Shown in pieces: positions 22,074 through 57,216 of a DNA stretch of 64,000 bases (the stretch's first letter is position 1; every line of letters begins with the position of its first letter). Origin of the DNA: Candidatus Woesebacteria bacterium (GTDB lineage Bacteria; Patescibacteriota; Microgenomatia; UBA1400; PJMF01); NCBI GenBank assembly GCA_050123235.1, contig JASFHL010000007.1, positions 75-64,074 of the forward strand, read 5' to 3'. The position numbers were made by a program, and so were the translations under genes. A model generated the notes under the pieces. It did no database searches. It saw only the letters and a list, made by a program, of their open reading frames with translations, and was not told the origin of the DNA.

Positions 22074-22109
22074 TTGATGGGTTTTTTTGAGAAAATATGA
22101 TTACATAAT

Positions 22110-27250: not shown

Positions 27251-27439
27251 CTAATTTTCATTACTAAGTTGATTTAAAATATCTTGGTCCTCAATTGGGA
27301 TTGGTTTATAAATTAGAGCGAATCGCTTTAATTCCTTTAAAGCCATAACTTGAGCTTCTTCATAATCAAGCCATACACCGCATTTCTTTTGGTAAAGTTT
27401 TTGAAAGCTGGTGATGGCTTCGTGGCTTAGTTGCATCAC
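27251..27439 (-). CDS. hypothetical small protein
   Basis: 62-aa ORF in the same orientation as the recombinase block. Confidence 0.3.
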   Translation of the reverse strand: MMQLSHEAITSFQKLYQKKCGVWLDYEEAQVMALKELKRFALIYKPIPIEDQDILNQLSNEN

Positions 27440-28358: not shown

Positions 28359-28383
28359 AAAAAAACTCCTTAGTAACTCCAGG

Positions 28384-28465
28384 TACGGAGTGTGACCTAG
28401 AGTTGCTAAAGAGTTTTTATCACTCCGTTTTTAGGCAAAAAAAAACCACGCAAAAAATTGCGTGG
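28384..28465. terminator. divergent-block hairpins
   Basis: CGGAGTG...CACTCCG+TTTTT on the plus strand. On the minus strand, a 9-nt A-run followed by CCACGCA-aaaaat-TGCGTGG gives a hairpin with a downstream T-run. Confidence 0.4.
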
Positions 28466-32919: not shown

Positions 32920-33789
32920 ATGTCAATTACTTTAACTGACGCACAAGTTAAATTTAAGCAACACCTAGAAGAGTCTGGAAAGGCTCATGCCACGGTGATT
33001 GCTTACAGTAAAGATATAGAACAATTAGTAGAGTTCTTAAATAAAGGAGGCAAACTTCAAGCTGAAGAAGTACTTGCCGATAATATTGATGATTTTAAAG
33101 AACTCTTAAAAAAGCAACGCTATACCAGTAAGTCTATTTCAAGAAAAATCAATTCAATCAAAGCCTTTTTTAGATATTTAGTTAATCAAGGTTTGGTAGA
33201 AAGCAATCCTGCTAAGGTAATTTCTCATCCTAAGTTTGAACAAAGCTTACCTAGAGTTTTATCAAAGGTTGAATATCGAGCTTTAAGAGATGCCTGTAGG
33301 GGTGATGTGCGTATTGCTGCAATCGTAGAGTTATTATTGCAAACTGGAATGAGAATTAGTGAATTAGCTAATTTAAAGCTCCAGGAACTTGATTTAGAAA
33401 GAAATGTGATTAATATTGTTGCTCAGAATTCTAGAGATGCTAGAAAAGTGCCTATCAATAAAGCAGCCAAGAATGCTTTGATGGATTATTTGAAAATTAG
33501 GCCAAGAGCTAGAGAAAAGACTATTTTTTTAACCAAAACTTGTCGACCTTTTTTGGTTAGAAATATTCGTACTGCAATTGACAGGTATTTTAGATTAGCT
33601 GGAATCAAAGGTGCTAAAGTTAATGACTTAAGACATACCTTTATTGTTGAACAACTTAAGGCCGGTACTCCATTGGTTTATATTTCCCAATTAGTGGGCC
33701 ACAAAAGAATTACTACTACTGAAAAATACCTTAAATTGGTTGAGCAAAATGATGAGTTGAGTCCAACTGTACAGATAGAGGAATTGTAA
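32920..33789 (+). CDS. tyrosine recombinase, XerC/XerD family
   Basis: N-terminal core-binding domain. Catalytic region 'TGMRISELANL', 'DLRHTF' and 'VGHKRITTTEKY' matches the R...HxxR...Y pattern. Confidence 0.75.
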   Translation: MSITLTDAQVKFKQHLEESGKAHATVIAYSKDIEQLVEFLNKGGKLQAEEVLADNIDDFKELLKKQRYTSKSISRKINSIKAFFRYLVNQGLVESNPAKVISHPKFEQSLPRVLSKVEYRALRDACRGDVRIAAIVELLLQTGMRISELANLKLQELDLERNVINIVAQNSRDARKVPINKAAKNALMDYLKIRPRAREKTIFLTKTCRPFLVRNIRTAIDRYFRLAGIKGAKVNDLRHTFIVEQLKAGTPLVYISQLVGHKRITTTEKYLKLVEQNDELSPTVQIEEL

Positions 33790-41355: not shown

Positions 41356-41449
41356 GATATCAAAATTTTTTTCTTAAAAGAAGTATTAATTACTAAATTA
41401 TTACTTTTTTAAATTTAAGGAGCTGGAAGTGAGTGGAGAGGACATTATT

Positions 41450-41513
41450 GTACACAAATCTTGATCGTTGAAGCGAGGTTGGGCTTATTTGTATTATAGA
41501 TTAGTATTTTAAT
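41450..41513 (+). repeat. family-A repeat fragment A5 (left TIR and 5' core only)
   Basis: ACAAATCTTGATCGTTGAAGCGAGG matches the left end of A2. It is truncated where B1 begins. Confidence 0.55.
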
Positions 41514-41671
41514 CACTTACATATATTATTAAACTAGGAACCTTGAAGTGAAGTCAAAAAAGATAAGAATAAGATATAAGTAAGGACTGAGCTTCAGAGA
41601 AGGAGCTCTGTAGTGATGATTTAGCAGCTAACTTACTGCGACTGTGTCCTAGTTTAATAATATATTAAGTG
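41514..41671 (+). repeat. family-B repeat, copy B1 (158 bp, ~26-bp TIRs CACTTAcATATATTATTAAACTAGGA)
   Basis: About 92% identical to B2 (50775-50931). TIRs are CACTTA...ACTAGGAAC and GTCCTAGT...TAAGTG. Confidence 0.75.
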
Positions 41672-41696
41672 AAGTATAATACTATTCTTAATCTGC

Positions 41697-41731
41697 TTGA
41701 CTTTTTAGCAGTCTATAAGATATATTGCTAG
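41697..41731 (+). promoter_or_regulatory. promoter (TTGACT -35) overlapped by a CIRCE-like operator upstream of hrcA
   Basis: TTGACT at 41697-41702. TTAGCAGTC-TATAAGATA-TATTGCTAG at 41705-41731. A -10-like ATATAT sits within the spacer. Confidence 0.55.
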
Positions 41732-41734
41732 CAA

Positions 41735-42454
41735 ATGATCGATCTTGTAGCTAGGCAAGTTCAAATTTTACGTGCCATTATTGAAGAATTTATCCAAACC
41801 GCTAAACCAGTTGGTTCTGAAACTATTGATAAAAAATATAACATTGGTGTTTCTCCAGCAACCATTCGCAACGAAATGGTTTATCTAACCAAACAAGGTT
41901 ATTTAAATAAAGCTCATACCAGCTCTGGTAGAGTACCTACGCCTTTGGCTCTAAAACTTTATGTTAATGAACTGATGAAAGAGAAGGAGCTATCAGTGGC
42001 AGATGAAGTTGGTGCTAAAGAGAAAATCTGGGAGAGCAGGAAAGAAGTAGATAGACTTTTGCATGAGTCGGCCAAGGTCCTAGCCAATAAAGCCAAAGCC
42101 TTAGGTTTGGCTATGACTGATGAACGTCGACTTTATCATGCTGGTTATGCCAACTTACTCCACATGCCTGAATTCTATGATATTAAAGTGATGCGCCATG
42201 TTTTGACCCTAATTGAAGAGGCTAGTCTGATGGAAGAAGTTTTTGAACAAGGAGCCAGTGAAAATCCTGTTCAATTAGTTTTTGGCCAGGAGTTAGGCAA
42301 CAAGCATTTGGAACCAATCAGTATTATTTACATTTCAGTTAATGCCGGTGGTCACCCTTGTAAAGTTGGAGTTTTGGGTTCCAACCGTTTTGATTATCCA
42401 TACTTAATTCCAATGATGAAATACTTCAAAGCTCTAATTGAAGAGATGGTGTAA
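41735..42454 (+). CDS. hrcA: heat-inducible transcription repressor HrcA (short form)
   Basis: 'LRAIIEEFIQTAKPVGSETI...VSPATIRNEMVYLTKQGYL...HTSSGRVPT' is the HrcA wHTH. Operon with grpE-dnaK and CIRCE. Confidence 0.8.
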   Translation: MIDLVARQVQILRAIIEEFIQTAKPVGSETIDKKYNIGVSPATIRNEMVYLTKQGYLNKAHTSSGRVPTPLALKLYVNELMKEKELSVADEVGAKEKIWESRKEVDRLLHESAKVLANKAKALGLAMTDERRLYHAGYANLLHMPEFYDIKVMRHVLTLIEEASLMEEVFEQGASENPVQLVFGQELGNKHLEPISIIYISVNAGGHPCKVGVLGSNRFDYPYLIPMMKYFKALIEEMV

Positions 42455-42968
42455 AATATTCCATATGAAAAAAGATCAAAGTAAGCATGCCAAAGTTAAA
42501 GTTACTGCTGCTAAAAATTCAACTTCAAAACAAAAGAAGTCAGAATTAGCTCAACTGAAATCTCTTTGCCAAGAATTACAAACAAAATTAACAGCTGCAG
42601 AAGAAAAAGAAAAGCGAACTTTAGCAGACTATCAAAATTTAATCAGGCGCAATCGTGAAGAAAGAGCAGCTCTGATTAAAATGGCAAACAAAGATTTACT
42701 ATCAGGATTATTACAAGCACTTGATAATCTTAGTCGCGCTAGTCAGGAAATTGATAATCCTGGACTTAATATGGTTATTAAGCAATTTTGGCAAAGCTTA
42801 AAAGAATTTGGTTTGGAAGAGATTGAAGTAATGGATCAAGAATTTGATGTCGATACTATGGAAGTGGTAGATAAAAAAGATAAAGCCAAAAAAGTAATTG
42901 CAGTGGTCAGCAAAGGTTATAAACTTAATGGTGAAGTCATACAACACGCCAAGGTAATTTTAGATTAA
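42438..42968 (+). CDS. grpE: nucleotide exchange factor GrpE
   Basis: Coiled-coil 'TLADYQNLIRRNREE' (the conserved DFxNYRKR region) and a C-terminal beta domain. The start may instead be Met 42465. Confidence 0.8.
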   Translation: MKRWCKIFHMKKDQSKHAKVKVTAAKNSTSKQKKSELAQLKSLCQELQTKLTAAEEKEKRTLADYQNLIRRNREERAALIKMANKDLLSGLLQALDNLSRASQEIDNPGLNMVIKQFWQSLKEFGLEEIEVMDQEFDVDTMEVVDKKDKAKKVIAVVSKGYKLNGEVIQHAKVILD

Positions 42969-43004
42969 TATTTCATGCTTTTTACTAAATTTAAAAATTC
43001 CTAC

Positions 43005-43040
43005 TTGCAAAAATTAGCAGTCTATGATTTACTCTGCTAA
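43005..43040 (+). promoter_or_regulatory. CIRCE-like operator with upstream -35-like TTGCAA, 250 nt upstream of dnaK
   Basis: TTAGCAGTC-TATGATTTA-CTCTGCTAA at 43014-43040. Confidence 0.55.
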
Positions 43041-43084
43041 TAGTCGTGATTGAATATAATAATAATTTATAAATTAGATTTTAA

Positions 43085-43241
43085 CATTTACTACAGATAA
43101 ATTTTGAAGCGTTGAAGTGAGGTCTGGCTAGGCTTGAAGTAGCAAGTAATTTACTACCGAACTTCACCGAGTGAGCCTTATGTTTAGAAAGATAACGAAA
43201 ATGTAGCAGCGAACGACTCCAAAATTTATCTGTAGTAAATG
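43085..43241 (+). repeat. family-A repeat, copy A4 (157 bp, 21-bp perfect TIRs CATTTACTACAGATAAATTTT) in the dnaK leader
   Basis: Perfect TIRs at 43085-43105 and 43221-43241. The core carries the compensatory pair GTTGAAGTGAGG / CCGAACTTCACC. Confidence 0.75.
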
Positions 43242-43292
43242 TGACACAATCTTATTTTTAATAAATGTTAAAACAAAATATAAGGAGAATAT

Positions 43293-45254
43293 ATGGCAAA
43301 CAAAACTACTGCTAAAATCATTGGTATTGATCTTGGAACCACTAATTCTGCTGTGGCTGTCATGGAAGCAGGTACAGCCAAAGTTATTCCAACAGCTGAA
43401 GGTCGCAATACTTTTCCTTCAATTGTTTCTTTCAAAGGAAAAGAAATCAAAGTTGGTGATCCAGCTAAACGCCAAATGGTGATGAATCCCAAGACTACTG
43501 TCCACTCAGTCAAAAGATTTATGGGTAGGCGTTTAAAAGATAAAGAAGTGCAAACTGCTATCAAAAATGTATCTTATGATATTGTGGAAGGTAAAGATGG
43601 CATGGCTGTGGTTGAAGTAGCTGGTAAAAAATATACTCCTCAAGAAATTTCTGCCAAAGTTTTATCTAAAGCTAAAGAGGATGCAGAAAGCTATCTGGGC
43701 TCCAAAGTTGAGCGAGCAGTGATTACTGTGCCAGCATATTTTGATGACTCCCAGCGTCAAGCTACCAAGCAAGCTGGTGAAATTGCTGGGCTGAAAGTAG
43801 AAAGAATTGTTAATGAGCCAACCGCTGCTGCTTTGGCCTATGGTTTGGATAAAAAAGGTAGCCAAACGATTGCTGTTTATGATCTTGGTGGTGGTACTTT
43901 TGATATTTCCATTTTAGAAATTGGAGACGGTGTTTTTGAAGTTAAATCTACCAATGGTGACACTTTTCTTGGTGGGAATGATTTTGATAATAAAATCATG
44001 GATTGGATTGTAGATGAATTTAAAAAAGAAACAGGCAAAGATCTATCCAAAGACCCACAAGCTATGCAGCGCATTAAGGATAGCGCAGAAAAAGCTAAAA
44101 TAGAGTTATCATCTTCTCAACAAACTGAGATCAATCAACCTTTTATTGCTCAAGGTGAAGACGGTCAAGCTTTACATCTTACCATGACACTCAGTCGTTC
44201 TAAGCTTGAAGAACTAGTTGATGATCTGATCAAAAGATCTATTACCCCGGTTAAAAAGGCACTCAAAGATGCCAAGCTAGATCCCAAAGATATTGACGAA
44301 GTGATCTTGGTTGGTGGTCAAACTAGGATGCCTAAAGTTCAAGAGGAAGTTAAAAAATTGTTTGGCAAGGAAGCACACAAAGGGGTTAATCCTGATGAGG
44401 TAGTGGCCATTGGCGCAGCTGTGCAAGCTGGCGTGATTTCTGGCGATGTTTCTGATGTAGTGCTTTTGGATGTCACTCCCTTGACTCTAGGTTTGGAAAC
44501 TTTAGGAGGAATTAGGACTCCTCTGATCGAGCGTAATACCACCATTCCCACCAGCAAGTCTCAGACTTTTTCAACAGCTGCTGATAATCAAACCCAAGTG
44601 GAAATTAATGTACTACAGGGCGAGCGCGAAATGGCTGCTGACAACAAAAGTTTAGGTCGTTTTTTCCTGGATGGTATTCCACCTGCTCCAAGAGGTGTGC
44701 CTCAAGTTGAAGTGGCCTTTGACATTGATTCCAATGGTATTCTGAACGTCACTGCTAAGGATAAAAATACTGGCAAAGAACAAAAAATTACCATTCAAAA
44801 CTCAACTAATTTGTCTGATGAAGAAATTGAAAAAATGAAAACTGACGCAGAAAAGCATGCTGAGGAAGATAAACAAAAGAAAGAGTTGATAGAAAGCAAA
44901 AACAAAGCCAATAGTGTTGCCTTTGAAATAGAAAAACAGCTCAAAGAATACGGTGATAAACTTGATGAAAAAGACAAAACCGCCATTGAAGAGAATGTAA
45001 AACAGCTCAAAGAAATGGCAGCCAAAGAGGACGCTAAAAAAGAAGAGTTGGATAAGGCTGTAGAAGAAACTCTCACTAGCGCTCAAAAAATTGGTGAGGC
45101 CATGCAAAAAGCACAAGCTACTCAGGCACAAGCAGGCGCTGGGGCTAAAGGTGATGATGCTGGTAAAGGCGGCAAAAAAAAGGCCAAAAAATCAGACAAA
45201 AAAGCTGCTGATGAGAAAAAAGATGCTGAAGAAGGGGAGGTAGTTGAAGAATAA
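43293..45254 (+). CDS. dnaK: chaperone DnaK (Hsp70)
   Basis: '[14 protein letters not shown]', 'DLGGGTFD' and a C-terminal 'EEGEVVEE'. Confidence 0.95.
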
Positions 45255-45432
45255 GGGGATGAGTTTGAGTTGATTTTCAAGATCAGCAAATTTAGCTGCA
45301 TATTGATCGTAATATTATTAGTTAAAAACTAACTTTAGCTGTGTCCCAATCAAAAACAGGATCAGCAGTTGCTTCTTAACTTTGCTTCATCCATCTCTGG
45401 TGATGCCTCAGCTATGCCTACTCTGCTTCTAA

Positions 45433-45753
45433 CTAATCTAAAAGTTGTTTTATCTCTGCTAAGGACTGCTCTACTTTGTCTTTATCTACATATTGTACTT
45501 TATTAGGAAAATACATTCTTTTTAACAAACGTTTTACCTTTAGCAAGGTATCAATCGCGGTTATGTCCAGACTAGCTATCTTTCCCTCATCACCATAAGG
45601 ATATAAACGCATAGCTATCGCTATAAAGCTGTCATATAATTCTCCCTAACCTTCCTGCCTATATAAAATGATGTTATTTACATAGTCATAAAAAAGATTT
45701 CTAAAAAAATCTTGAGCAGAATTGATTTCCCTTTGACGATCCATTTCTGACAT
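45433..45753 (-). pseudogene. ORF interrupted by a single in-frame TAG (possible degraded TA-island gene)
   Basis: Minus-strand reading 'MSEMDRQREINSAQDFFRNLFYDYVNNIILYRQEG*GELYDSFIAIAMRLYPYGDEGK...EIKQLLD*'. The stop is at plus 45646-45648. Frame continuity was checked by hand. Confidence 0.3.
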
Positions 45754-45825
45754 AAGTTATCCTTTCGGAGTTAAATTTTAAAAATTATTAATAGCTTGAT
45801 TATACTACAAAAAATTAGATGATTA

Positions 45826-46131
45826 TTGACATATAATTATACATATAATATTATGTTTTATATGAGTCTAATGCCAACCATCGTCTCAGCTAGGGACATT
45901 CAAAGGAATTATCGCAAGATATTTGACCAAGTTAAAAATTCTAATCCTATTTTTGTGTTAAACAACAATCAACCTGAAGTAGCTATTATTGATATTAAAT
46001 TACTTGAAAGGCTATATCAAAAAGCCAAAAGAACCGACTTGCTAGAAGCATTGCAAGCTGTTAATATCTATCAAAAAGAGAAACAACTTAAGAAACTCAA
46101 AAAACTAAATTCACTTCGAGACTTGACTTAA
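45826..46131 (+). CDS. type II antitoxin, Phd/YefM family
   Basis: 'TIVSARDIQRNYRKIFDQVKNSNPIFVLNNNQPEVAIIDIKLLERL' matches the Phd/YefM pattern. The true start is probably an internal Met. Confidence 0.6.
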   Translation: MTYNYTYNIMFYMSLMPTIVSARDIQRNYRKIFDQVKNSNPIFVLNNNQPEVAIIDIKLLERLYQKAKRTDLLEALQAVNIYQKEKQLKKLKKLNSLRDLT

Positions 46132-46189
46132 ATCATTTAGTCTAATTAGCTGCCCAATACTCAGATAATTTTTTAATCACATTCAATTA

Positions 46190-46456
46190 ATGAATATCCA
46201 TACTATCTACTATACAAGCCATTTTGCCAAAAAGTATAAAAAGCTCCCTGTGAGAATCAAAAAATTAGCAGAAAAAAAAGAAAAAGTTTTTAGAAATAAC
46301 CTTGCTGCAAAAATATTGAAAACTCATAAATTAACTGGAAAATTAAAAAATTACTATGCTTTTTCCATTAATCGAGAATACCGCATTTTATTTTGTTTTG
46401 AAAAAGATGGCAGTGTGACTTTTATTAATATCGGGACGCACGCGATTTATCAATAG
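46190..46456 (+). CDS. type II toxin, RelE/ParE superfamily
   Basis: 88 aa. 'FAKKYKKL...KLTGKLKNYYAFSINREYRILFCFEKDGSVTFINIGTH' matches the RelE/YoeB-like pattern. Lies downstream of the antitoxin. Confidence 0.6.
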   Translation: MNIHTIYYTSHFAKKYKKLPVRIKKLAEKKEKVFRNNLAAKILKTHKLTGKLKNYYAFSINREYRILFCFEKDGSVTFINIGTHAIYQ

Positions 46457-46554
46457 GCTGGTCCATTGTTAATACTCTTTCAGAGTAAGCTGTTTATTTC
46501 AGCAACATTTAAACATCCTTTGCCTTGCTCTAAATTAGCTTGTAAACTAAAAGC

Positions 46555-48120
46555 ATGAAGCATAAACAAGCTTTGTTTGGTTTGTTGCTAGTTTTAAAAA
46601 AAGAAAAAAAATTAATTGCTATTTGTTTTGCTCTCTGTGCGCTTTTTCTTTTTCTTAGAATTTATAAACTTACTAGCTCATTTGAGCTGTTTGCTGATAT
46701 CGGACGTGATTTGCATGTCTTGATGTTGATGGTGATTGAAAAAAAACCACCTCTTTTAGGGCCGAGTACTAGCTGGCTGCCCATTAACCAAAGCCCAATA
46801 TATTTTTATATGCTTGTGCCGATTTTCTTACTTAGTGGCTTTTCCGGCTTTACTGTTCAGCTTACAGTTTTTGCCTTGTATTTAGTTTTTTTTGTGCTGG
46901 GAGTTTTATTTTTGCGACAGGATAAATTACTCTTAGCTGTGTTACTGGTAACAGCTTTACTGCTGACTATGCACCCAGAAGTTGTTTTACAAACTAGGTT
47001 ACCATGGAATCCTTCATTTGCTCCGCCTTTTTTACTCATGAGTATTTTTGTTTTAGTTTTGTTGCGGCAGAAATTTAGTCAATTAAAACTTTTTTTCCTA
47101 AGCTTGGGTTTGGTAATAGCAATTGCCTTGAGTTACTCCAATTTTCCAATCTTATCTTTGTTTTTTCTGTATTTGCTTTTCTCGTTTAGAAAAAATAGAC
47201 AGAGAATCTTGTCACTTTTTAGCAGTTTTTTCGTTTCTTTTTTGATTGCTTTTTTGCCAATTCTGATTTTTGAACTCAGAAATAAATTTTTCTTTTTCAA
47301 GCGTCTGACTATGGACGAACCATTTTTGATGAAGCCAAAAATTGATTATTTGCAAAAACTCACTTTATTTTTGAAATATTTAGGAGGTAGTTTTTTACCA
47401 GAGATGAATAGCTTAGTACTGCTAGTCATGTTTTTAGCCTTGTTGATTAATTTAATTTTGATCAAAGGACAATGGTGGCATAATTTTTTAAACAGAAAAA
47501 ACAAAAATGCTAAGGCAGCTAAGAAAGTTAGCAAGAACAAAGCTGTGAAAAAAACTAATTTTTCAGAACAAGATCAGTTATTTCTTTTCTTTTTAAAATT
47601 CTTCTTATTAATCTTTTTCTTTACTCTGCTGATGCCATTTAAGATTATGGCTCATTATATTTTTGCCACTTTGTGCTTGCTGTTTGTCACTTTGGCTTTA
47701 ATCAGGAAAGAACTGCTTTTGCCGTTGCTAGTAATTTTAGCCTTAATTTGGTTGCGACCAAGACAAGTCATTTTTTATACTGCCCCAGCCAAAAGGACAG
47801 TAGCTCAACTAGAAGCTTGTGCTAAAAAAGTTTGTCAAATAGAAAAAGAGCCGCTCTTTGTAACAGTGCAGGCTTGGTATCATTATCATTTTGCACCAGA
47901 TCATATTTTTTTCATGAATAAACATGGTTGCCAAGCTAGAGATATCACACAAAGTCCGGGCTTTGCTAATAAAATGGCCGTAGTCTCTGATCAATCAAAG
48001 TATGAACATGGTAAAACAGCTTTTAATGAGTTGACTTTATTTGGTGAGTCTGAATTGATGTTAGAATATCATTGCGAGGGTAATATTAGTATCTATATAT
48101 TAGAGAGGGTAGCAGAATAG
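46555..48120 (+). CDS. GT-C-like polytopic membrane protein (paralog 1)
   Basis: More than ten TM helices with an N-terminal periplasmic loop. 'LGPSTSWLPINQSPIYFYMLVPIF' is shared with paralogs 2 to 4. Confidence 0.45.
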   Translation: MKHKQALFGLLLVLKKEKKLIAICFALCALFLFLRIYKLTSSFELFADIGRDLHVLMLMVIEKKPPLLGPSTSWLPINQSPIYFYMLVPIFLLSGFSGFTVQLTVFALYLVFFVLGVLFLRQDKLLLAVLLVTALLLTMHPEVVLQTRLPWNPSFAPPFLLMSIFVLVLLRQKFSQLKLFFLSLGLVIAIALSYSNFPILSLFFLYLLFSFRKNRQRILSLFSSFFVSFLIAFLPILIFELRNKFFFFKRLTMDEPFLMKPKIDYLQKLTLFLKYLGGSFLPEMNSLVLLVMFLALLINLILIKGQWWHNFLNRKNKNAKAAKKVSKNKAVKKTNFSEQDQLFLFFLKFFLLIFFFTLLMPFKIMAHYIFATLCLLFVTLALIRKELLLPLLVILALIWLRPRQVIFYTAPAKRTVAQLEACAKKVCQIEKEPLFVTVQAWYHYHFAPDHIFFMNKHGCQARDITQSPGFANKMAVVSDQSKYEHGKTAFNELTLFGESELMLEYHCEGNISIYILERVAE

Positions 48121-48125
48121 AATTT

Positions 48126-48860
48126 ATGTCAGAAATAGAAACCATCCAAGAACCACAAAATTATCAAGAAGCTAAAGAATTCTTGATCAATTCAAGTCAT
48201 CCTAGAACTCATGCTGGTAAAGATACTAGAATTGCTCTCTTGAATAAAGTTTATGAAGGGGAAAGAGAAACTGTTTATGCAAAAATGCTTCAACAATATT
48301 TAAAAAAAGCATTTGAAGATAGAAGACGAGGCACAATTTTTCATTTATTGGAATTTCCAGAAACACGCAGATTAATGCTCATTAAAGCAGATAAAGATCG
48401 TTTCCCTAGAGAAATGTATGCAGAGGAAGTAAAAATTTTTCCCAGTGAATTATTGCCCTTTTTCCGTAATTATCTTGAAAGAATTGAAAGCTACTGCCAG
48501 GATCTCGATCCAAACACAGAGCGAGATGCAGAAGTAAAAACTCGAGTAGAAGAATTATTATTGGCAATTTTAAATAAACAAATTCCTGATACTAATTTTA
48601 CGCTTTATAAATTTTTATTTGATCATTTCAGGAGGAGTGATACTTCTCTAGATGAAACAAAAGGTGTTATTTATGATTATATAAGCTTGCCACTCAGTAA
48701 TTTAATTTTAGAAATAAAAAGTCATGCTGAAGATAGAAAATATCAAATGGCTAAAAGAGCCAGAATTATTTCAGAAGATCAATTTAGAAGAATAAAAACA
48801 TGGGAAGATGCTGATAGACAAAAAGGGTTACTACGAGCTAGACAAGCTAGGCTGCGCTAA
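48126..48860 (+). CDS. hypothetical soluble protein within the glycosyltransferase island
   Basis: 244 aa, R/E-rich and helical. Confidence 0.4.
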   Translation: MSEIETIQEPQNYQEAKEFLINSSHPRTHAGKDTRIALLNKVYEGERETVYAKMLQQYLKKAFEDRRRGTIFHLLEFPETRRLMLIKADKDRFPREMYAEEVKIFPSELLPFFRNYLERIESYCQDLDPNTERDAEVKTRVEELLLAILNKQIPDTNFTLYKFLFDHFRRSDTSLDETKGVIYDYISLPLSNLILEIKSHAEDRKYQMAKRARIISEDQFRRIKTWEDADRQKGLLRARQARLR

Positions 48861-48933
48861 GCCGCTAAGTAAGTATAAAATCTCGCAGTCGCTAGTTGTT
48901 AAGATCTAAGCTCAGGCATTACAATATTGCTAA

Positions 48934-50745
48934 ATGAAAAATAAAAAAGTTTCTCATCTTTTACAAAAAATTTTTCCAAAGAGCAAAAAATTTAAATTTT
49001 TTTTCAAAAAGGGTCTTTCTTGCCCTTTTTTAAAGAGATTTAGCTCATACTTTGCTATCTTTTTTTTGGTCGCGTTTACAGTAGCTCTTCGTTTTTTACC
49101 AATCTCCACAGGCAATTTTTCTTTTATGTATGATAATGCTAAGGATTCCCTGCTGATTCGCAGAATAGGGGTGCAACATAAACCCGCTTTATATGGAGCT
49201 GTCACTAGTATTGATGGAGTTTATAATGGACCACTTTGGTATTACTTAGCTCTACCTCTCAATTGCTTGCTTAATTATCACCCCATGGCTAGTATTTTGA
49301 TGGTGATTGTTTTGGCGGTTCTGTCTGTTTTAATTTTGTATTTTTCACTGGGTTTTTTTGAAGCATTTCTTTATGCCATCTCTTTTGGTCTAATTGCCAG
49401 TCAGCAATCGGCTTGGACGCCATACATGACGCCATTTGTGCTTTTACTAATTCTCTTAATTTTTTTAAGTTTTAAGTCAGAGTCTAAAAACAAACAATCA
49501 AAGTTTAAAAAAATTTCTAGTTTTTCAGGATTGATAAAATCTAAGCTGCTTAGGCTAGCTAGCCCCTTCCGCGCACTAAAAAAATTTAAATATCGATCTT
49601 TATGCCAAGCTTGTTTTGAGCAGCAAACTCTCAAATTAGCTAGTATTTTTTTACTCACATCTTTTGCTTTCCATTTTCAAACAGCCTATGGCATGGTTTT
49701 ATTACCCACGGTTTTAATTTTACTTTTTGTTTTAAAGATCAGACCAAATTCAAAACAAATTTTAATTAGCTTGCTGGCTTTTCTGATACCATTCACTCCT
49801 TTTTTTATTTTTGAACTTAGAAATGACTTTCATCAGAGCAAAGCAATTTTGCATTTTATCAAAGATTATAAAAATCAAGCTCAAGTGATTAATCCTAACC
49901 AAAAGGGTTTAGCCAGATGGGGAGAAATAGCAGGCTATATCTATCAAAGTAGCTGGCAAGCTTTAGCTCCAGCAGAAATTCCAGCTTTGGGTTGCTTGGG
50001 GGTGATGGGGATTTTTATATATTTGCTTGATCGCTGTTTATTGCGAAGATCAGTAGATAGATTTGAAGGGAAAATCTTTGCTGTTTTTATTTTAAGTCCA
50101 CTTATTTTTTATCAAATTTTACCTTGTAAATCATATTACCTAGTTGCCTTAATGCCAGTCTGGATTATTTTTTTTGCTAAATTTATTAGGGCTTATTTTG
50201 CTAAAATTCTACCGTTGCTAATAATTTTATTCACTGGGGTAGCTTTAATTAATTTAAGCCAAAGTCTTGATCATTACCAATTACTTGCTCAAACAGAATC
50301 TTTTCCATTCTCAGCTAAACTAGCTGCAGTTAAAAAAGTTTATCAATTAAGTGAAGGTCAAAAATTTAGTTCCTATCATTTTGTGCCAGAAGTATATGAT
50401 TACACTTACCAGCAAATTTATTTGTATTTGATTGACCAGGATTATCCAGAGCCTTTGGAGTTTAGCTATGCGCCAGGTGAATTTACTTATATGAGACCAC
50501 AGTATTTACCTTTGCAACCGCCTAAATTGCAAAAACAAGATAGTAGCCAAGCGGATGACTCCATGATGGCAGAAAATATCGAAACATCAAACTTAGTATT
50601 TTTAATTGTTGAGAAATATTACAGCCAAGAGGTTTTTAATCAATGGTGGCAACGAGTGAGTGCTGATTTGGAAATTTTGGAAAGTTCTCAAATTAATGAT
50701 GCGATTAGGGTTTATAAAGCGAGGAGGGTACAAATAAATGAGTAG
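48934..50745 (+). CDS. GT-C-like polytopic membrane protein (paralog 2)
   Basis: 'KPALYGAVTSIDGVYNGPLWYYLALPL' aligns with paralogs 3 and 4. Has a large C-terminal soluble domain. Confidence 0.45.
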   Translation: MKNKKVSHLLQKIFPKSKKFKFFFKKGLSCPFLKRFSSYFAIFFLVAFTVALRFLPISTGNFSFMYDNAKDSLLIRRIGVQHKPALYGAVTSIDGVYNGPLWYYLALPLNCLLNYHPMASILMVIVLAVLSVLILYFSLGFFEAFLYAISFGLIASQQSAWTPYMTPFVLLLILLIFLSFKSESKNKQSKFKKISSFSGLIKSKLLRLASPFRALKKFKYRSLCQACFEQQTLKLASIFLLTSFAFHFQTAYGMVLLPTVLILLFVLKIRPNSKQILISLLAFLIPFTPFFIFELRNDFHQSKAILHFIKDYKNQAQVINPNQKGLARWGEIAGYIYQSSWQALAPAEIPALGCLGVMGIFIYLLDRCLLRRSVDRFEGKIFAVFILSPLIFYQILPCKSYYLVALMPVWIIFFAKFIRAYFAKILPLLIILFTGVALINLSQSLDHYQLLAQTESFPFSAKLAAVKKVYQLSEGQKFSSYHFVPEVYDYTYQQIYLYLIDQDYPEPLEFSYAPGEFTYMRPQYLPLQPPKLQKQDSSQADDSMMAENIETSNLVFLIVEKYYSQEVFNQWWQRVSADLEILESSQINDAIRVYKARRVQINE

Positions 50746-50774
50746 TTATAAATATTATAGATAAGTATTTACAT

Positions 50775-50931
50775 CACTTAGTATATTATTAAACTAGGAA
50801 CCTTGAAGCGAAGTCATAAAAGAAAAGAATAAGATATAAGTAAGGACTGAGCTTCAGAGAAAAAGCTTTGTAGTGATGATTAAGCATTTAGCTTACTGCG
50901 ACTGTGTCTTAGTTTAATAATATACTAAGTG
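50775..50931 (+). repeat. family-B repeat, copy B2 (157 bp)
   Basis: Near-identical to B1 and followed by the A-type module GTAGCGAACGACTCTAAGATTTAT. Confidence 0.75.
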
Positions 50932-51002
50932 AAACAGCATACTATTCTGTAGCGAACGACTCTAAGATTTATTGCTATTGAGTTTTCAACAGTTTCCTTA
51001 AT

Positions 51003-52679
51003 ATGAAAAAAAGGATTAAATTACCAACAATTAATCTGTCCCGCAGAGAATTATGCTTATTCTTTTTAATTTTTTTACTGGGTTTAACTTTACGCCTCTA
51101 TCCTGGTCGTGATCACTACATTTGGTTTTACGACCAGGCTCGTGATCGCGCAGTCATTCAGTCTATCATTGAAGATAAAAATTTAGTTTTGTTGGGGCCA
51201 GCTACTTCTAAGTGGGGACTGTTTCATGGGCCATTATTCTATTATTTTTTAGCTCCCTTTTATTTTTTATCTCAAGGAGATACATTTTTAGCAATCTGGG
51301 CAATGATTTTGTTCAATTTATCAGCCATGATTCCTTTGGCACTCTTAACTTTTGCTCTTTTTAAAAATAAGAAAATAGTTTATTTATCTTTGTTTTTCTT
51401 TGCTATTTCTTATGAAATGATCGAATATGCTCGCTGGCTAACTAATGTTTCGATGGCCATTCCTTTTTTACTGTGGGCTTTTTACTTTGCTTATCGAATC
51501 AGACCTGATTTGTCTGAGCGAGAAATAATTAGCTATTTTTTAGGAAAAAGCAAATTACTTCCACAGAGCATTGCTAATCTTGTTCAACAGAAAAAAACAG
51601 TTTTACTGCCTATTTGTTTTGCTATCTCTCTAGGTTTAGCAATTCAAAGTGAGATTTTTTTAATTTATTTGATCCCTTTTTTCTTGCTATATTTTTTCTT
51701 GATTCATTTGTCTTTGCGCAAAATTCTACTATCAGCTTTGACTTTGATCTTAACTTTATCTCCTTTGGTTTTAGCGGAGTTTAAATTTTCCTTTCAGATG
51801 AGTAAAAGTTTTTTTCAGCAACTTTTGCAGACTGGAGCAGAAACTAGATTCTTTGTCAAAGAATCACTCTTAAAATATTTTGAACGGCTAGCTCTGAGTG
51901 CCCAACTTAATTTGTTTGGGCTGCCTTTAACTATGAGTTTTTTCATCTTATTAGTTACTTTTACTGCTGTTGTCTATTTTATGCGGCGAGAATCAGATAG
52001 AAATAAAAAAACTCTCTATTTTCTATTCTTTTTCTTATTTAGCCAAATAGTTTTATTTATTTTTCCCTTTGTTGATAGAATTTATTTAAATTTAACAGTA
52101 GGCATGTTGCTGATTATTTTAGCGGCTTATTTTTTGAACAAACTAATGCAATCTAAATTTGCAGCTTTAGCTAAACTAATACTGCTGTTATTTTTTTTAT
52201 TGCAAATTTTTCAATTGCGCAGCAATACTTTGGGTAAAACTCCTTTTAGTAAATATGAATCAACTTCACCAGCTTATATAATGTCTAGCTATTTTGCAGT
52301 GCTTGATAAAATTTATGAAGAAGCTGAAGGTGAGAAGTTTAGTATTGCAGTTTTGGCTAATCCTTATGGAGTACGTACCACTTGGGCTGGCATTTTTCAG
52401 ATTTATTTTAATAGAAAATCACTAGCAAATGAAGATCCGCCCACTTGGTTTGGCTACCATGCTAATGGTTACTGGGAGGATGATTACTTTCCCACTCTTG
52501 ACTATCCTCAAGACCTGCATTTTTTAATTATTTATCCGCAGTCTGATGGATTTTTGCCAGCACCGATTCTAGAAGAGTTTTTTGAGCAGCAGGATGACGC
52601 AACCTTGAAAATATCTGAGTATAATATTGATGAGATTATGGTGGAAAAGAGAATTAGAAAAGCAGAAATAGATAAATAA
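51003..52679 (+). CDS. GT-C-like polytopic membrane protein (paralog 3; ArnT/PMT-like topology)
   Basis: 'IWFYDQARDRAVIQSIIEDKNLVLLGPATSKWGLFHGPLFYYFLAPFYFLSQGD' near the N-terminus and 'WFGYHANGYWEDDYF' near the C-terminus. Confidence 0.5.
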   Translation: MKKRIKLPTINLSRRELCLFFLIFLLGLTLRLYPGRDHYIWFYDQARDRAVIQSIIEDKNLVLLGPATSKWGLFHGPLFYYFLAPFYFLSQGDTFLAIWAMILFNLSAMIPLALLTFALFKNKKIVYLSLFFFAISYEMIEYARWLTNVSMAIPFLLWAFYFAYRIRPDLSEREIISYFLGKSKLLPQSIANLVQQKKTVLLPICFAISLGLAIQSEIFLIYLIPFFLLYFFLIHLSLRKILLSALTLILTLSPLVLAEFKFSFQMSKSFFQQLLQTGAETRFFVKESLLKYFERLALSAQLNLFGLPLTMSFFILLVTFTAVVYFMRRESDRNKKTLYFLFFFLFSQIVLFIFPFVDRIYLNLTVGMLLIILAAYFLNKLMQSKFAALAKLILLLFFLLQIFQLRSNTLGKTPFSKYESTSPAYIMSSYFAVLDKIYEEAEGEKFSIAVLANPYGVRTTWAGIFQIYFNRKSLANEDPPTWFGYHANGYWEDDYFPTLDYPQDLHFLIIYPQSDGFLPAPILEEFFEQQDDATLKISEYNIDEIMVEKRIRKAEIDK

Positions 52680-52697
52680 TGGTAAATTTAATTAATT

Positions 52698-54269
52698 ATG
52701 CAATCAGTCAAAAATTTAACTAAGATAGAAATATTAATTTTGGTTTTCATTGTTATTCTAGGAATTTTTATAAGATTAATTCCAGGAAAAGGTCATTTCA
52801 TTTGGGATTATGATCAAGCAAGAGATTCTTTTGAAATTAGAAAAATTATTCAAAACAAAGATCTAATTTTAATTGGCCCACAAGCTGAAAAACATGGAAT
52901 GTTTCACGGGCCGTTATATTATTATTATTTGGCTCCTTTTTACTATCTTTCTCATGGTGATCAAAATTTACCTCTGTTAGCTATGATTTTTTTAAATTTA
53001 TCTAGCATTATTCCTCTGGCTTTATTAAGCAAACAATTATTTTCTAAACTTGGTTCAAAACAAAGTAAGTTGATCACGTTCTTAGTTATTTTTTTATTCG
53101 TAATTTCTTATGAACAAGTTGAATACGCTCGCTGGTTATCTAATGTTTCAATTACCATTCCACTTTTAGCATGGAGTTATTATTTTATTTGGAAATTGTT
53201 TAGCAGCAGAAAATATGCTTTTTATTTAGGCTTATCATTGGGTTTGGCAATTCAAGGAGAAATTTTTCTAATCTATTTAATTGCATATTCGTATCTATTA
53301 TTGCTTTTAAATAGACATAAAATAAAGGATTGGATAAAATTTCATTTTGGTCTAGCTGTTGGCCTATTACCTTTAATTCTTGCGGAATTAAAATTTAATT
53401 TTCAAAGCACAAAAACTTTTATCAATTATTTTATTAATCGTCATAGTGTAGAAGATTTATCAGCTGGACAGTCAATTCTAAGTTATTTAGATCATATGGG
53501 TTTTACTGTTAAGAATAATTTATCTGGTTTTTCAAACTCATTTGGTCTTTATTTTTTAATCCTGATATTAATTTTATATTTATTTTGGAAGAGAGATATT
53601 ACAAAACTGAAAATTAAGAAAGAAATTGCTTATATTTTCATTTGGCTTTTTTCTCATTTTATTCTTTTCTCATTTCATTTTGTTGATGCAGTATTTCTGA
53701 ATTTAGGCATAGGCTTAAGTATGATTTTTTTAATGTCATTTTTAATCTATTTATTTTGCTACAAAAAACAAAAAATCATGGCTTCTTTATTTTTGATTTT
53801 TGTAGTATTTATGCAAATCAGATTGTTAATGGTTAATACTCATCATAATCAACCATTTAATAAATTTAAGTTTGTTCAAAAAGATGCAATTCTTTTTAAA
53901 GAAAAGATAGCAATTGTTGATCAGATATATCAGTTAGCCAATAATGAGTCATTTACTTTTGCTGTTTTAGGAACACCTTATGGTGTAAGAACAAAATGGG
54001 CCAGTGTTTTTGAACAATATGCCAGACAAAATGATGTTGAGATACCACATTGGTTTGGCTACTATGCCAACGGCTATCCAGGGGAAAAACTGTTTATAAC
54101 TCAAGATTTTCCAGAACAAAAACATATTGTCTTAATCGAATCAAGTCAACACTTAATTGATCCTTACACCAGAAAAAATTATCTAATAGAGCAGGATAGA
54201 ACAACGAGATTGATAGAGGAAAAGGAATTGTATGGTCATAGAATTCAGTTGCGGGAGAGAAAAGAGTAA
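52698..54269 (+). CDS. GT-C-like polytopic membrane protein (paralog 4; tandem duplicate of paralog 3)
   Basis: 'IWDYDQARDSFEIRKIIQNKDLILIGPQAEKHGMFHGPLYYYYLAPFYYLSHGD' and 'WFGYYANGYPGEKLF' are collinear with paralog 3. Confidence 0.5.
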   Translation: MQSVKNLTKIEILILVFIVILGIFIRLIPGKGHFIWDYDQARDSFEIRKIIQNKDLILIGPQAEKHGMFHGPLYYYYLAPFYYLSHGDQNLPLLAMIFLNLSSIIPLALLSKQLFSKLGSKQSKLITFLVIFLFVISYEQVEYARWLSNVSITIPLLAWSYYFIWKLFSSRKYAFYLGLSLGLAIQGEIFLIYLIAYSYLLLLLNRHKIKDWIKFHFGLAVGLLPLILAELKFNFQSTKTFINYFINRHSVEDLSAGQSILSYLDHMGFTVKNNLSGFSNSFGLYFLILILILYLFWKRDITKLKIKKEIAYIFIWLFSHFILFSFHFVDAVFLNLGIGLSMIFLMSFLIYLFCYKKQKIMASLFLIFVVFMQIRLLMVNTHHNQPFNKFKFVQKDAILFKEKIAIVDQIYQLANNESFTFAVLGTPYGVRTKWASVFEQYARQNDVEIPHWFGYYANGYPGEKLFITQDFPEQKHIVLIESSQHLIDPYTRKNYLIEQDRTTRLIEEKELYGHRIQLRERKE

Positions 54270-54400
54270 GTTTGTTTTTAGAAGCTAGACGTTTGATTAA
54301 ATATGGTCACCAGGTAAAGTAGGCCTTGAATGAGTTCCTGTCTTTCAAACTATAACAGTTGGCAGCTCCATTTATACTGAATTTTGCTATACTAAAACTC

Positions 54401-55090
54401 ATGAAACTATCTGTCATCGTTCCCGTTTATAATGAAGCGGCTACCATTGCGGAAATTCTTAATAAATTAGTCAAAGTCAAGGACGTTTATGAAATTATTA
54501 TTGTTAATGACGGCTCTACTGATCACAGTCTCCAAATTATTGAAAAAACGAAAAAAGAATTAGGCAAGCTTAAAGCTAGAAAGATCAAAGTTTTTGACAA
54601 AGAAAATGGAGGCAAGGGTAGTTCAGTCCGTTTAGCTTTGACTAAGGTCACTGGAGATTATGTTTTAATCCAAGATGCTGATCTGGAATATGACCCTGAT
54701 GATATTGCTGCTTTATTGGAGCCGATCAAAAAAGGCAGAGTTGAGGTGGTTTATGGCTCTCGTTTTTTAGGTCCACATTCCAATCTTTTGTTTTGGCACA
54801 AAGTTGGCAATACTTTTTTAAATTTAGTGGTAAATATACTCTACGACACCACGCTTTCTGATATGGAGACTTGTTATAAAGTTTTACCCACTAAGCTCTT
54901 TAAGGAACTTGATATTAAAGCAGCTAAATTTGATTTAGAACCAGAAATTACTTGTAAAGTTTTAAAAAAAGGTATCAGGATTTTTGAAGTACCAATTACT
55001 TATATAGGGAGAGATTTTTCTGAAGGTAAAAAAATTACTTGGAAAGATGGCTTTTCAGCTTTGTGGACTATTATCAAGTTGAGGTTTTAG
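54401..55090 (+). CDS. GT2 polyprenol-phosphate glycosyltransferase (DPM1/GtrB/ArnC-like)
   Basis: 'MKLSVIVPVYNEAATI', 'IIVNDGSTDHS' and 'LIQDADLEYDP' (DxD). The start is set at the ATG at 54401 rather than the TTG at 54359. Confidence 0.75.
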   Translation: MKLSVIVPVYNEAATIAEILNKLVKVKDVYEIIIVNDGSTDHSLQIIEKTKKELGKLKARKIKVFDKENGGKGSSVRLALTKVTGDYVLIQDADLEYDPDDIAALLEPIKKGRVEVVYGSRFLGPHSNLLFWHKVGNTFLNLVVNILYDTTLSDMETCYKVLPTKLFKELDIKAAKFDLEPEITCKVLKKGIRIFEVPITYIGRDFSEGKKITWKDGFSALWTIIKLRF

Positions 55091-55101
55091 TGCCACTTAA
55101 A

Positions 55102-57216
55102 ATGAAAAATTTGTTAAATTTATATGATTTAATAATACTGAACATGTCCTACCCGTTATTTAGTATTTCATTCATCCTACATTTCTTACTCTTCATCTTA
55201 GCTTTGTTTTTTTCTCTTTATTTACCAGGGTCTTTCTTTATCAATTCTCTTTTTTCTAAAAGCAAAGTTCCTCAATTAAAAAAATATAGCGCCTTACTCA
55301 AACTGGTTTCATCTTTGGTTTTGGGATTAGTGTTATGGACAGCTCAAGGTGTATTTTTTGGCTATTTACGATTGAGAAATCTAAGTTATCTTTATATAAT
55401 TTTTTTCTTTTTAGCTTTTTTGTGGCAAAAAAAACCCAGTTTGAGCAAAATTTTTGTTGCCGCAAAAGCAATTGGCAAAAATTTTAAATCAATCAATCCT
55501 GTTGTTTTAATTTTTCTAACAATTGGCTCTTTTTTGCAACTCTTAGTGATCAGTGGCTCTGGCTTTTTGAGTGAGCAAGGAATTAAGTTTTATTTTGATA
55601 ATGCAGCTGAACCGATCATGCATTTAGCCTATATCCAAGCTTTGATTCGTAATTTTCCAGCAATAGAACCTGGTTTAGCAACAGTGCCTTTGCTTAATTA
55701 TCATTATTGGTCAGATTTTTTTATGGCCGAACTAGCTAGAGTTTGGCAATTACCAGTTATTCATCTCTATTTTCATTTTTTACCCCCGCTACTCGCTATC
55801 TTGAGTAGTTTTTTGATTTATTTGATTGTTAAAGCATGGCGAGGTACTGATTTAGTGGCTTTTTTAGCTTTGTTTTTCTTTTTCTTTGGGGCTGATGCTG
55901 CCTATACTATTTATTTTTTACTTCACCGACAACTTAGTTTTCATGTTGCTGGGATTGATAATGGCATGGAACAGTTTTTCAATTCACCTCATGTTTTTGC
56001 CAAGCTGATTTTTTTGGCAAGTTTACTGGTTTTATTTTTCTGGCAAAAGCTGAGTTCAAAACAAAGAAGCCTAGATAAAAAATGGGGCTTACTTTATTTG
56101 ACTTTAGCAGCTCCTTTAGTTGGTTTTAAGGTTTATTATGGTATTTTTTCAGCTATTGCTTTGTCAGTGCTGGTAGCTGTTAGAGTTTTGAAAGCTATCT
56201 ATAAAAAAGACTGGCGAAACTGGCGTTCAATTTTTCTCCAAGAAAAATTTTCACTGTTTTTATTGTTTTTATTCGCTCTAATTTCGGCGACTATTTATTT
56301 TCCAACTAATAGCAGTGCTGGCGGCCTATTTTTCATTCCATTGGAATGGCCGAAATTGTTATTAGCGCCACACAATTTAGATTTTAATGATTGGTTTCTT
56401 CGTCAACAGGTCTATCACGCTGCTGGAAATATTCGCAATTTACTAATTCTGGACTTTTTGGCAATATTAATTGCTTTGATTAGTATTCATGGCACAAGAT
56501 TAATTGGTTTTTTGCCCACCAAAAAATTGGCTAAAATTCTGGGATTTGAATATTTACTTTACTTATTAATTCCTAGCATTATTTTCACTATTGCTGGTTT
56601 TTTTACCCTGCAACAGTCAGGCGCTTTTAATGTGTTTAATTTTTTTATTGTCAGTTTAATTGTTTTTAGTTTTTTTGCTGCCTTTAGATTGGCAGATTTT
56701 TTAAAGTCAAAAAACTTTTTCCTAAAAATTCTGGCTGTGTTGATTATAATTTTGACAGTCCCCAAATCAACTCATGCTCTTTATTTAGCCGCCACAGAAC
56801 TGAATGATGCAGAAGCACAGATCTTGGTTAGTAAAGTTGAACTAGAAGCTTTTATAAAATTACGCAGTCTTTTGCCAGCAACGGCAGTTGTCCAATCTCA
56901 TCCTAAAAATAGCTTAGACCAAGACACACCTTATTTATCTTTTTTTCTTAATAGACAAAGTTATTCAGCTGGTTTCAATCTATTGGAGAATCTGGGCAAA
57001 GCTAATTTAGAAAGAAAAACTAATTTAGAAAAAATGTTTTTAACTGAAGATGCTACCAGTCTAGCCAGTGAGATGAGGCAGCGTGGTATAGATTACCTTT
57101 ATTTACAAAAAAAGCCAGCTCAAAAGCTGAATTTTGATTTAGCAAAAAGTGATAATATATTTAAAGTGCTTTATGAAGATGAACTAGTGCTGGTAGTGGG
57201 TCTTGCAGAACAGTGA
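55102..57216 (+). CDS. large polytopic membrane protein, YfhO/GT-C-like
   Basis: About 700 aa with more than 12 TM helices. Immediately downstream of the GT2, as in CsbB/YfhO and GtrB/GtrC pairs. The start is set at Met 55102. Confidence 0.4.
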   Translation: MKNLLNLYDLIILNMSYPLFSISFILHFLLFILALFFSLYLPGSFFINSLFSKSKVPQLKKYSALLKLVSSLVLGLVLWTAQGVFFGYLRLRNLSYLYIIFFFLAFLWQKKPSLSKIFVAAKAIGKNFKSINPVVLIFLTIGSFLQLLVISGSGFLSEQGIKFYFDNAAEPIMHLAYIQALIRNFPAIEPGLATVPLLNYHYWSDFFMAELARVWQLPVIHLYFHFLPPLLAILSSFLIYLIVKAWRGTDLVAFLALFFFFFGADAAYTIYFLLHRQLSFHVAGIDNGMEQFFNSPHVFAKLIFLASLLVLFFWQKLSSKQRSLDKKWGLLYLTLAAPLVGFKVYYGIFSAIALSVLVAVRVLKAIYKKDWRNWRSIFLQEKFSLFLLFLFALISATIYFPTNSSAGGLFFIPLEWPKLLLAPHNLDFNDWFLRQQVYHAAGNIRNLLILDFLAILIALISIHGTRLIGFLPTKKLAKILGFEYLLYLLIPSIIFTIAGFFTLQQSGAFNVFNFFIVSLIVFSFFAAFRLADFLKSKNFFLKILAVLIIILTVPKSTHALYLAATELNDAEAQILVSKVELEAFIKLRSLLPATAVVQSHPKNSLDQDTPYLSFFLNRQSYSAGFNLLENLGKANLERKTNLEKMFLTEDATSLASEMRQRGIDYLYLQKKPAQKLNFDLAKSDNIFKVLYEDELVLVVGLAEQ

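Follow-up and report, generated by a model that had tools for sequence, protein, structure and literature searches.

A probable lineage-specific family of hairpin-forming interspersed repeats in a Candidatus Woesebacteria genome

The window, a 64-kb stretch of a metagenome-assembled genome of Candidatus Woesebacteria (Patescibacteria, or candidate phyla radiation, CPR; assembly GCA_050123235.1, contig JASFHL010000007.1), has densely packed housekeeping genes and a base composition of 31-36% GC; all genome-level counts given here refer to it. Its HrcA is identical to NCBI protein PVJ09_04150, and the samples behind the assembly are SRR11698124 and JGI 3300042731. Two copies of a short repeat, B1 (41514-41671, + strand) upstream of hrcA and B2 (50775-50931, + strand) downstream of dnaK, lie 9.26 kb apart in the same orientation, and more diverged repeats, termed A, lie beside them and elsewhere in the window. 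A and B probably constitute a single lineage-specific family of AT-rich, hairpin-forming interspersed repeats, approximately 160 nt long (about 200 nt with the outer stem). The tally in the 64 kb comprises five full copies, two half copies, one host remnant around B2 and one decayed copy. CPR/Patescibacteria genomes are small and compact; the window carries about nine copies and fragments, or about one copy per 8 kb.

By alignment, B1 and B2 are 92% identical, in agreement with a sequence-only reading of this stretch that had described two copies of ~158 bp, and an independent repeat search recovers them as an ungapped 167-nt pair with 90% identity. The B1/B2 repeat is real, not a chance match. 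The terminal inverted repeats of ~26 bp seen in that reading are also present: the arms of B2 (50774-50799 and 50907-50932) span 26 nt and are 96% complementary, and those of B1, with an imperfect outer extension of the stem included (41498-41539 and 41647-41688), span 42 nt and are 79% complementary. The interval between the arms is 107 nt in both copies. The borders first drawn were too short, as homology reaches ~22 nt further on the 5' side and ~17 nt further on the 3' side. The whole homologous stretches are 41492-41688 for B1 and 50753-50948 for B2, both on the + strand; the 92% identity covers ~197 nt and then falls abruptly to background on either side. Single-strand folding compared with shuffled sequences gives z = -5.7 for B1 and -7.5 for B2. 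The two are recent copies of one diverged subfamily, and the recency first suggested by their 92% identity stands.

Three further full copies, all of type A, are found in the window. The copy at 18613-18770 (+ strand) lies between a tsaC/tsaE fusion gene and tsaD, and its flanks pair further out (18562-18587 with 18800-18825; flank duplex z = -5.6). The copy at 43084-43242 (+ strand) is located in the dnaK leader, between the operator, a controlling inverted repeat of chaperone expression (CIRCE), and the ribosome-binding site. The copy at 22108-22265 (- strand) lies between a CHASE2-cyclase gene and the promoter and CIRCE of groES, with a stem that extends to 56-nt arms (22079-22134 and 22239-22294; flank duplex z = -4.3). 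Flank complementarity is moderate at B2 (z = -2.9) and absent at the 43084 copy. Against model R1, a covariance model built from the five full copies (B1, B2 and the copies at 18613, 43084 and 22108), the scores are 160.8, 163.3 and 154.1 bits for the three A copies in the order given, 151 bits for B1 and 149.5 bits for B2. With filters off, R1 finds in the window, beyond these five, only a truncated copy at smpB (47 bits) and a weak decayed copy (17.7 bits).

The smpB copy (15100-15205, - strand; 47.2 bits over 15055-15185) retains the 5' half to two-thirds of the unit, including the stem arm and a complete inner helix P2, and ends at the smpB start codon. It reaches this codon exactly, and a ribosome-binding site between them is not obvious. 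Another 5' half copy (41442-41491, + strand) consists of a stem arm and the CGTTGAAGCGAGGT core; it is truncated and directly abuts B1, and its score with a matrix of the core motifs is 25.5 (p<0.0002), the instance itself having been used in building the matrix. Directly after B2 stands an A-type 3' module (50949-50972, + strand) with the GTAGCGAACGACTC core and the start of a 3' stem arm. Its matrix score is 19.3, again with the instance in the matrix, and its stem part complements the 5' arm of the ~15.1 kb copy at 12 of 14 positions by eye. The probable decayed copy (17-190, - strand) has 44-nt arms that are 80% complementary and a core reduced to CTTAAAGCAAGATC; it is a weak instance, matched by R1 at 34-173 with E ~0.002-0.004.

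Units measure 158-200 nt at 31-37% GC, every full copy is intergenic, and stops occur throughout all six frames, for which reason spurious open reading frames (ORFs) across the repeat were dropped as protein queries. Six of eight copies are on the + strand, five of these upstream of a + strand gene, and the minus-strand smpB copy is likewise upstream of its own gene. Besides the heat-shock genes, copies also adjoin unrelated ones: tsaD, smpB and a PMT_2-like gene. Exact-protein look-ups and a paralogue search with the PMT_2-like gene brought back nothing but short contigs covering these loci, and no paralogue belonging to this genome. B1 and the smpB copy each contain the end of a short-read contig of the same organism, as expected of a multi-copy repeat; in practice, the copies break short-read assemblies of this organism. 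Nesting of every A copy within an older, decayed copy is not claimed, the flank test for decayed core motifs being non-significant (p = 0.05-0.98). A 62-nt AT-rich hairpin between divergent genes (28359-28420) scores 25.6 and 20.5 bits against R1 on its two strands through stem pairing only and is probably unrelated.

The A and B copies share one geometry. In an inverted-repeat search, arms of at least 26 nt enclose an interior of 104-110 nt (18611-18772, 43084-43242 and 22079-22294). In two alignments of the family, one with 7 sequences and one with 5, A and B are homologous over their whole length and have the core motifs TTGAAGYGARGTC, GARCTTCA..(N)..AGC and GCGA in common. A pattern derived from these motifs picks out the five full copies and nothing else, and it has no match in 100 shuffles. 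Divergence among family copies is 30-50%, and their alignment indicates that A and B have a common ancestry. Since B shares its core, its three-helix architecture and a full-length alignment with A, it is not the independent second family that the sequence-only reading had made of it.

The consensus fold consists of a closing helix, P1 (~26 bp, frequently lengthened to 40-56 bp), over a conserved junction core of ~107 nt that holds helix P2 and a tentative helix P3. P2 is formed by UGAAGC/GCUUCA, followed by a G-A/A-G tandem mismatch and then 3-4 further pairs. The tentative P3 is short (GUGAGC/GCGAAC in A and AGGAGC/GCGACU in B1) and is again arranged around a tandem G-A/A-G mismatch, so that the core contains the mismatched elements GCGAGG/CCGAGC and GUGAGC/GCGAAC. 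In B1, the P1 arms are 41514-41540 and 41646-41671, the P2 strands 41541-41554 and 41586-41599, and the tentative P3 strands 41601-41606 and 41638-41643; in B2, the P1 arms are 50775-50800 and 50906-50931.

Over 41 pairs, standard pairs make up 96.6% of the cells, compared with 76% for partners reassigned at random between the sequences and 35-38% for a shifted partner column. Both sides have changed in 22 of the 41 pairs, and 18 of these 22 lie among the 26 stem pairs of P1. The P1 arms are 35-66% identical between copies (the B1/B2 pair left out) and the core segments 62-100%; despite this arm divergence, 97% of stem positions remain paired. The compensatory maintenance of P1 is strong on these alignments, and the family is an unusually clear case of structure, rather than sequence, being inherited. 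The inverted ends do not behave like the fixed transposase-binding sites that their description as 26-bp terminal inverted repeats had implied: conservation resides in the interior core. P2 and P3 have tentative support, as it comes from few A-versus-B differences, and single-sequence folds favour local hairpins in the P3 region. Formation of the stem from local target sequence at insertion was considered and rejected, because arms are common to different loci (41442-41479 and 18614-18651, 87% identical). Hammerhead and other small self-cleaving ribozyme cores were also looked for by eye and rejected, as the candidate CUGA motif is not conserved and no such family appears in any Rfam scan.

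Both B copies lie in or against A sequence. At B1, the 5' half of an A copy (stem arm and CGTTGAAGCGAGGT) stands immediately before the unit, the same segment whose 87% identity to the 18613 copy bears out the truncated A copy first noticed there; after the unit, the hrcA promoter is present instead of an A 3' half. At B2, the sequence GTAGCGAACGACTCTAAGATTTAT at 50949-50972 matches the 3' core and stem of A copies, as first read. Before B2, a likely remnant of the 5' core of the hosting A copy, AAGCGAGG, is located at 50717-50724 (+ strand) in the last codons of the ORF 48934-50745, 29 nt upstream of the B2 homology unit (50753). This remnant is tentative: the reading is post hoc, as is the estimated chance of ~3e-4 for the 8-mer in a 60-nt flank, and the matrix test of the flanks missed it. 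Composite, nested repeats therefore exist, as the sequence-only reading held. Part of the host A interior is missing at both loci, so a clean cut-and-insert event does not describe them. A preference of B for A targets is only suggested, with two cases in the window. Insertion of one such element into another is on record for small bacterial repeats, the pneumococcal BOX, RUP and SPRITE elements among them (PMC10969869).

The hrcA-grpE-dnaK regions of relatives, with HrcA 86% (L002), 82% (L003/L004), 79% (L019), 79% (L005, GCA_964645645.1) and 75% (L020) identical to that of the window, were compared. L002, L003/L004, L019 and L020 contain no R1 match and no long hairpin near hrcA or dnaK. The spacer upstream of hrcA is 59-225 nt in these relatives versus 380 nt in the window, and the distance from the dnaK CIRCE to the ribosome-binding site is 41 nt in the 86% relative versus ~242 nt in the window, where it contains the 43084 copy. 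The hrcA promoter and CIRCE operator downstream of the position of B1 are conserved in L002 and L003, where the repeat is absent. Relative to these genomes the copies are insertions, given their absence and the shorter spacers there.

Other structures occupy some of these sites in relatives. In L005, a 72-nt hairpin (632-703; 27-bp stem, loop CATTTCGCGAAGCGGTGC) immediately precedes the hrcA -35 box, a second, incomplete copy lies 200 nt upstream (429-480), and a near-perfect 163-nt rod (8588-8750; -70.6 kcal/mol) with repeated AGCGA motifs lies between dnaJ and nusA. The hairpins at 632-703 and 8588-8750 were rejected as family members, since they match R1 through generic AT-rich stems only. 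In L003, the dnaK leader (12040-12215) contains, where the window has the hairpin repeat, an AT-rich sequence of ~170 nt in which CACTAA(T/A)-like units recur.

Database searches returned no further members. With Rfam 15, only two tRNAs pass the gathering score on the whole window; at permissive E-values, for B1, B2, the 43084 copy and the whole window, the best A or B matches reach 10-22 bits against thresholds of 40-87 and are at chance level. A strict core pattern has no match in GTDB species genomes or JGI metagenomes, and a looser one has 12, six in GTDB species genomes and six in JGI metagenomes, which are judged to be chance. A covariance search (cmsearch) finds nothing at the six GTDB loci, which come from unrelated taxa, and short partial matches at three only of the six metagenome loci (14.6-20 bits, model positions 29-84). 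On inspection of three of the metagenome loci (L014, L016 and L018), the closing stem is absent in all, and two are GC-rich. The looser pattern has no match in viral contigs, and blastn against phage and plasmid records returns nothing. The lineage restriction is provisional and these absences are weak evidence, because the source genome itself seems to be missing from the GTDB and JGI collections scanned.

All three CIRCE-like operators in the window (TTAGCAGTC-N9-..TGCTA), at 22337, 41705 and 43014, have a repeat copy within 17-45 nt. The hrcA promoter and operator occupy 41697-41730 (+ strand; TTGACT-18-TATATT), 9-17 nt downstream of the B1 unit, the hrcA-grpE operator itself being 41705-41730 (+ strand). 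The dnaK operator (43014-43040, + strand) is 44 nt upstream of the 43084 copy. The groES-groEL operator (22337-22362, + strand) is situated downstream of the copy at 22108-22265, at a distance of 43 nt from the end of its extended stem (22294) and 72 nt from its core. The placement varies: upstream of the promoter at hrcA, downstream of the operator in sense orientation at dnaK, and upstream in antisense orientation at groES. Located between operator and ribosome-binding site, the 43084 copy is probably co-transcribed with dnaK. The three-of-three association is post hoc, and its significance is lost if only inter-operon gaps are counted as possible sites; it may have arisen because gaps between operons are permissive or because palindromic DNA is favoured. 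Scans of the copies for promoter and terminator consensus sequences show no enrichment. As each of the three promoters under CIRCE control in the window has a neighbour copy, the family may influence heat-shock gene expression.

By size, AT-richness, intergenic position, hairpin folding and patchy distribution, features that define small interspersed repeats resembling transposable elements of the miniature inverted-repeat kind (MITEs; PMC3184786, PMC10969869), the family is MITE-like. Its members are shorter than 500 bp, non-coding and present or absent between the window and its relatives, which are distant (75-86% HrcA identity). Two MITE features are not seen, namely terminal inverted repeats common to the members and flanking direct repeats, and the conservation is the reverse of a classical MITE, with the arms least and the core most conserved across the family. 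The family belongs to no named repeat family; it is previously undescribed, of a conceptually familiar kind. No report of MITE-like repeats in CPR/Patescibacteria was found in the literature searched.

The nearest described behaviour is that of bcr1 of the Bacillus cereus group, a repeat of ~155 bp with a non-conserved distribution, whose folded structure is kept by compensatory changes (PMC3184786). Likeness extends to size, intergenic position, distribution that is not conserved between related genomes, and compensatory pair changes. bcr1 differs in having 5-bp direct repeats and a cruciform of two separate stem-loops; in the present family a single long stem closes the junction core, direct repeats are not seen and sequence similarity to bcr1 is absent. 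ERIC and Correia elements are comparable for possible effects on mRNA. Correia elements share with the family a length of about 100-200 bp, inverted ends of ~26 bp, positions near promoters or in mRNA leaders, and long hairpins. Their inverted repeats are conserved in sequence between copies and their insertion duplicates TA, whereas in the family the arm sequences differ freely from copy to copy and the flanks show no regular duplication of TA. In Neisseria, RNase III cleaves the transcribed stems of Correia elements (CREE/NEMIS; PMC10969869). ERIC sequences are imperfect palindromes of ~127 bp in transcribed intergenic regions, with strongly lineage-variable copy number and reported effects on mRNA stability (PMC10969869); they are highly conserved across genera, whereas the present family comes from a single metagenome-assembled genome and its copies are 30-50% different. 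The pneumococcal BOX, RUP and SPRITE elements cluster and insert into one another, as B does within A, but they have a modular boxA-B-C or terminator-like architecture, another host phylum and no sequence similarity to the family.

The same observations can be arranged in other ways. The copies could be functional structured RNA genes or cis-elements duplicated in this lineage, for instance a regulator acting with HrcA and CIRCE, in which the stem and the GA-motif junction are under selection. Strong covariation, the conserved core with its two tandem-GA motifs, the association with every CIRCE operator in the window, the sense copy inside the dnaK leader and the strand bias of copies towards positions upstream of genes would all suit such a role, as would the different hairpin repeat directly upstream of the hrcA -35 box in L005. 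We consider it unlikely, because position and orientation relative to the hrcA, dnaK and groES promoters all differ, four relatives lack any copy at the heat-shock sites, half and decayed copies exist and others stand beside tsaD, smpB and the PMT_2-like gene, promoters and terminators are not enriched, and the CIRCE association is post hoc and non-significant when only inter-operon gaps are counted. In a second class of alternative, the hairpins are structure-specific recombination sites of the attC type, or sites of the repetitive extragenic palindrome (REP) type for a tyrosine or HUH enzyme, and not transposable units. In attC sites and REPs, too, structure is kept and stem sequence is not, and a tyrosine recombinase gene is present at 32920-33789. 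Its 289-aa, XerC/D-like product is encoded at the same position in L020, which lacks the repeats; no RYYYAAC/GTTRRRY boxes are found at the hairpin bases and no cassette array is present, the copies being dispersed among housekeeping genes. REPs are GC-rich palindromes of 20-40 nt with a conserved 5' tetranucleotide, whereas the family units, at 158-200 nt, are about 4-5 times as long and AT-rich, and no Y1/HUH (RAYT) gene is found in the 64-kb window. Such recombination sites are scarcely probable at all.

Two alternatives concern B in particular. B could be a classical MITE in its own right that has 26-bp terminal inverted repeats, depends for movement on a transposase from elsewhere and targets A, as its two 92% identical, AT-rich, intergenic, MITE-sized copies with inverted ends, both in or beside A sequence, would suggest. 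This is decidedly unlikely given that its core and architecture are common to A, that conservation across the family is lowest in the arms, that the B1 and B2 flanks show no target-site duplication, and that no insertion sequence with ends matching CACTTA..TATTAAACTAGGAAC is found in the window. Alternatively, B1 and B2 could derive from one local segmental duplication of a composite A-B block that then decayed without mobility, an origin that the sequence-only reading had itself allowed for and that fits two B copies only, in the same orientation and both with A fragments. It is very improbable: the 92% identity stops at ~197 nt, a repeat search of the window finds no further duplicated sequence between or around the two loci, and the adjoining A-like content differs, with only a 5' half at B1 and an 8-mer remnant and 3' module at B2. 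The A-like flanks of the two loci are far more diverged than the B units, which makes a single duplication of the composite block unlikely; a better fit is provided by two separate events, each into a different A copy, or by conversion of the A interiors.

The family is probably a lineage-specific, non-autonomous, structure-dependent interspersed repeat, most likely selfish and mobile. It would spread, or would recently have spread, as a non-autonomous element mobilised in trans by an enzyme whose cue is the fold of core and hairpin, in single-stranded DNA or in RNA, and not a conserved sequence at the termini. Each B copy would have landed in, or recombined into, an older A copy. The stems would drift yet stay paired for one of two reasons: lineages that cannot form the hairpin fail to propagate, or one arm is corrected from the other in a hairpin intermediate. 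When transcribed, copies such as that in the dnaK leader would fold into a long stem of double-stranded RNA with possible consequences for mRNA processing, of the kind reported for Correia and ERIC elements.

Several points weigh against a mobile, selfish repeat. Mobility is deduced from the lack of copies in rather distant relatives (HrcA identity 86% at most) and not from an empty site in a sister strain. By reading, no target-site duplication is seen at plausible core or extended boundaries of B1, B2 and the copies at 18613, 43084 and 22108 (the B flanks are TATTAT|...|TAATCT and TATTAT|...|GTAGCG); this negative is weak, since the exact ends are not certain and duplications decay with age. 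The 64 kb contain no transposase, HUH nuclease or reverse transcriptase, and thus no transposase with matching terminal repeats of the kind that the sequence-only reading had suggested looking for; the sole recombinases in the window are a large serine recombinase in an integrated element and the XerC/D-like gene. The wobble counts in P1 (3 G-U and 1 A-C) do not indicate the folding strand. There are only five full copies, and the A/B differences represent few independent events, which leaves thin support for P2 and P3. Finally, a selfish repeat accounts for the proximity to all three CIRCE operators only through permissive or palindrome-rich targets.

If the family is only a selfish repeat, it is ordinary, though previously undescribed. 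Stems that are nearly randomised but 97% paired, around a conserved core, point to a structure-reading mechanism of mobilisation or maintenance. A bolder interpretation, which we regard as quite unlikely, is that the tandem-GA three-way-junction core is the recognition module of an undescribed structure-dependent mobile element that homes into hairpin-forming DNA (its own copies and CIRCE palindromes), or that the HrcA regulon of a reduced CPR genome has acquired, through recruitment of copies, a lineage-specific layer of RNA; the stem would then be kept by function or arm-to-arm correction, not by ancestry alone.

Other features of the window were also recorded. Although smpB is present, a transfer-messenger RNA gene was not found in the window. 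Two tRNA-Met genes (25131-25205, - strand, and 25359-25428, + strand) flank the end of the large serine recombinase gene (25416-27176, - strand), which overlaps the second of them by a few bases and is followed by a weak Rep3_N-like gene (27436-28092); the region 25131-28358 looks like a small integrated element at a tRNA gene. Just downstream of dnaK lies a pair consisting of a Phd/YefM antitoxin and a YafQ/RelE-like toxin (45826-46456), and the corresponding place in L003 carries an antitoxin-like gene on the opposite strand. Between dnaK and the GT2/YfhO/dnaJ genes, a lineage-specific gene block (46555-57216), absent in L003 and L005, contains B2. The block comprises paralogous membrane proteins (46555-48120, 51003-52679, 52698-54269 and 55039-57216) with common DNA repeats, and homologues of one of these proteins carry PF13231 (PMT_2).

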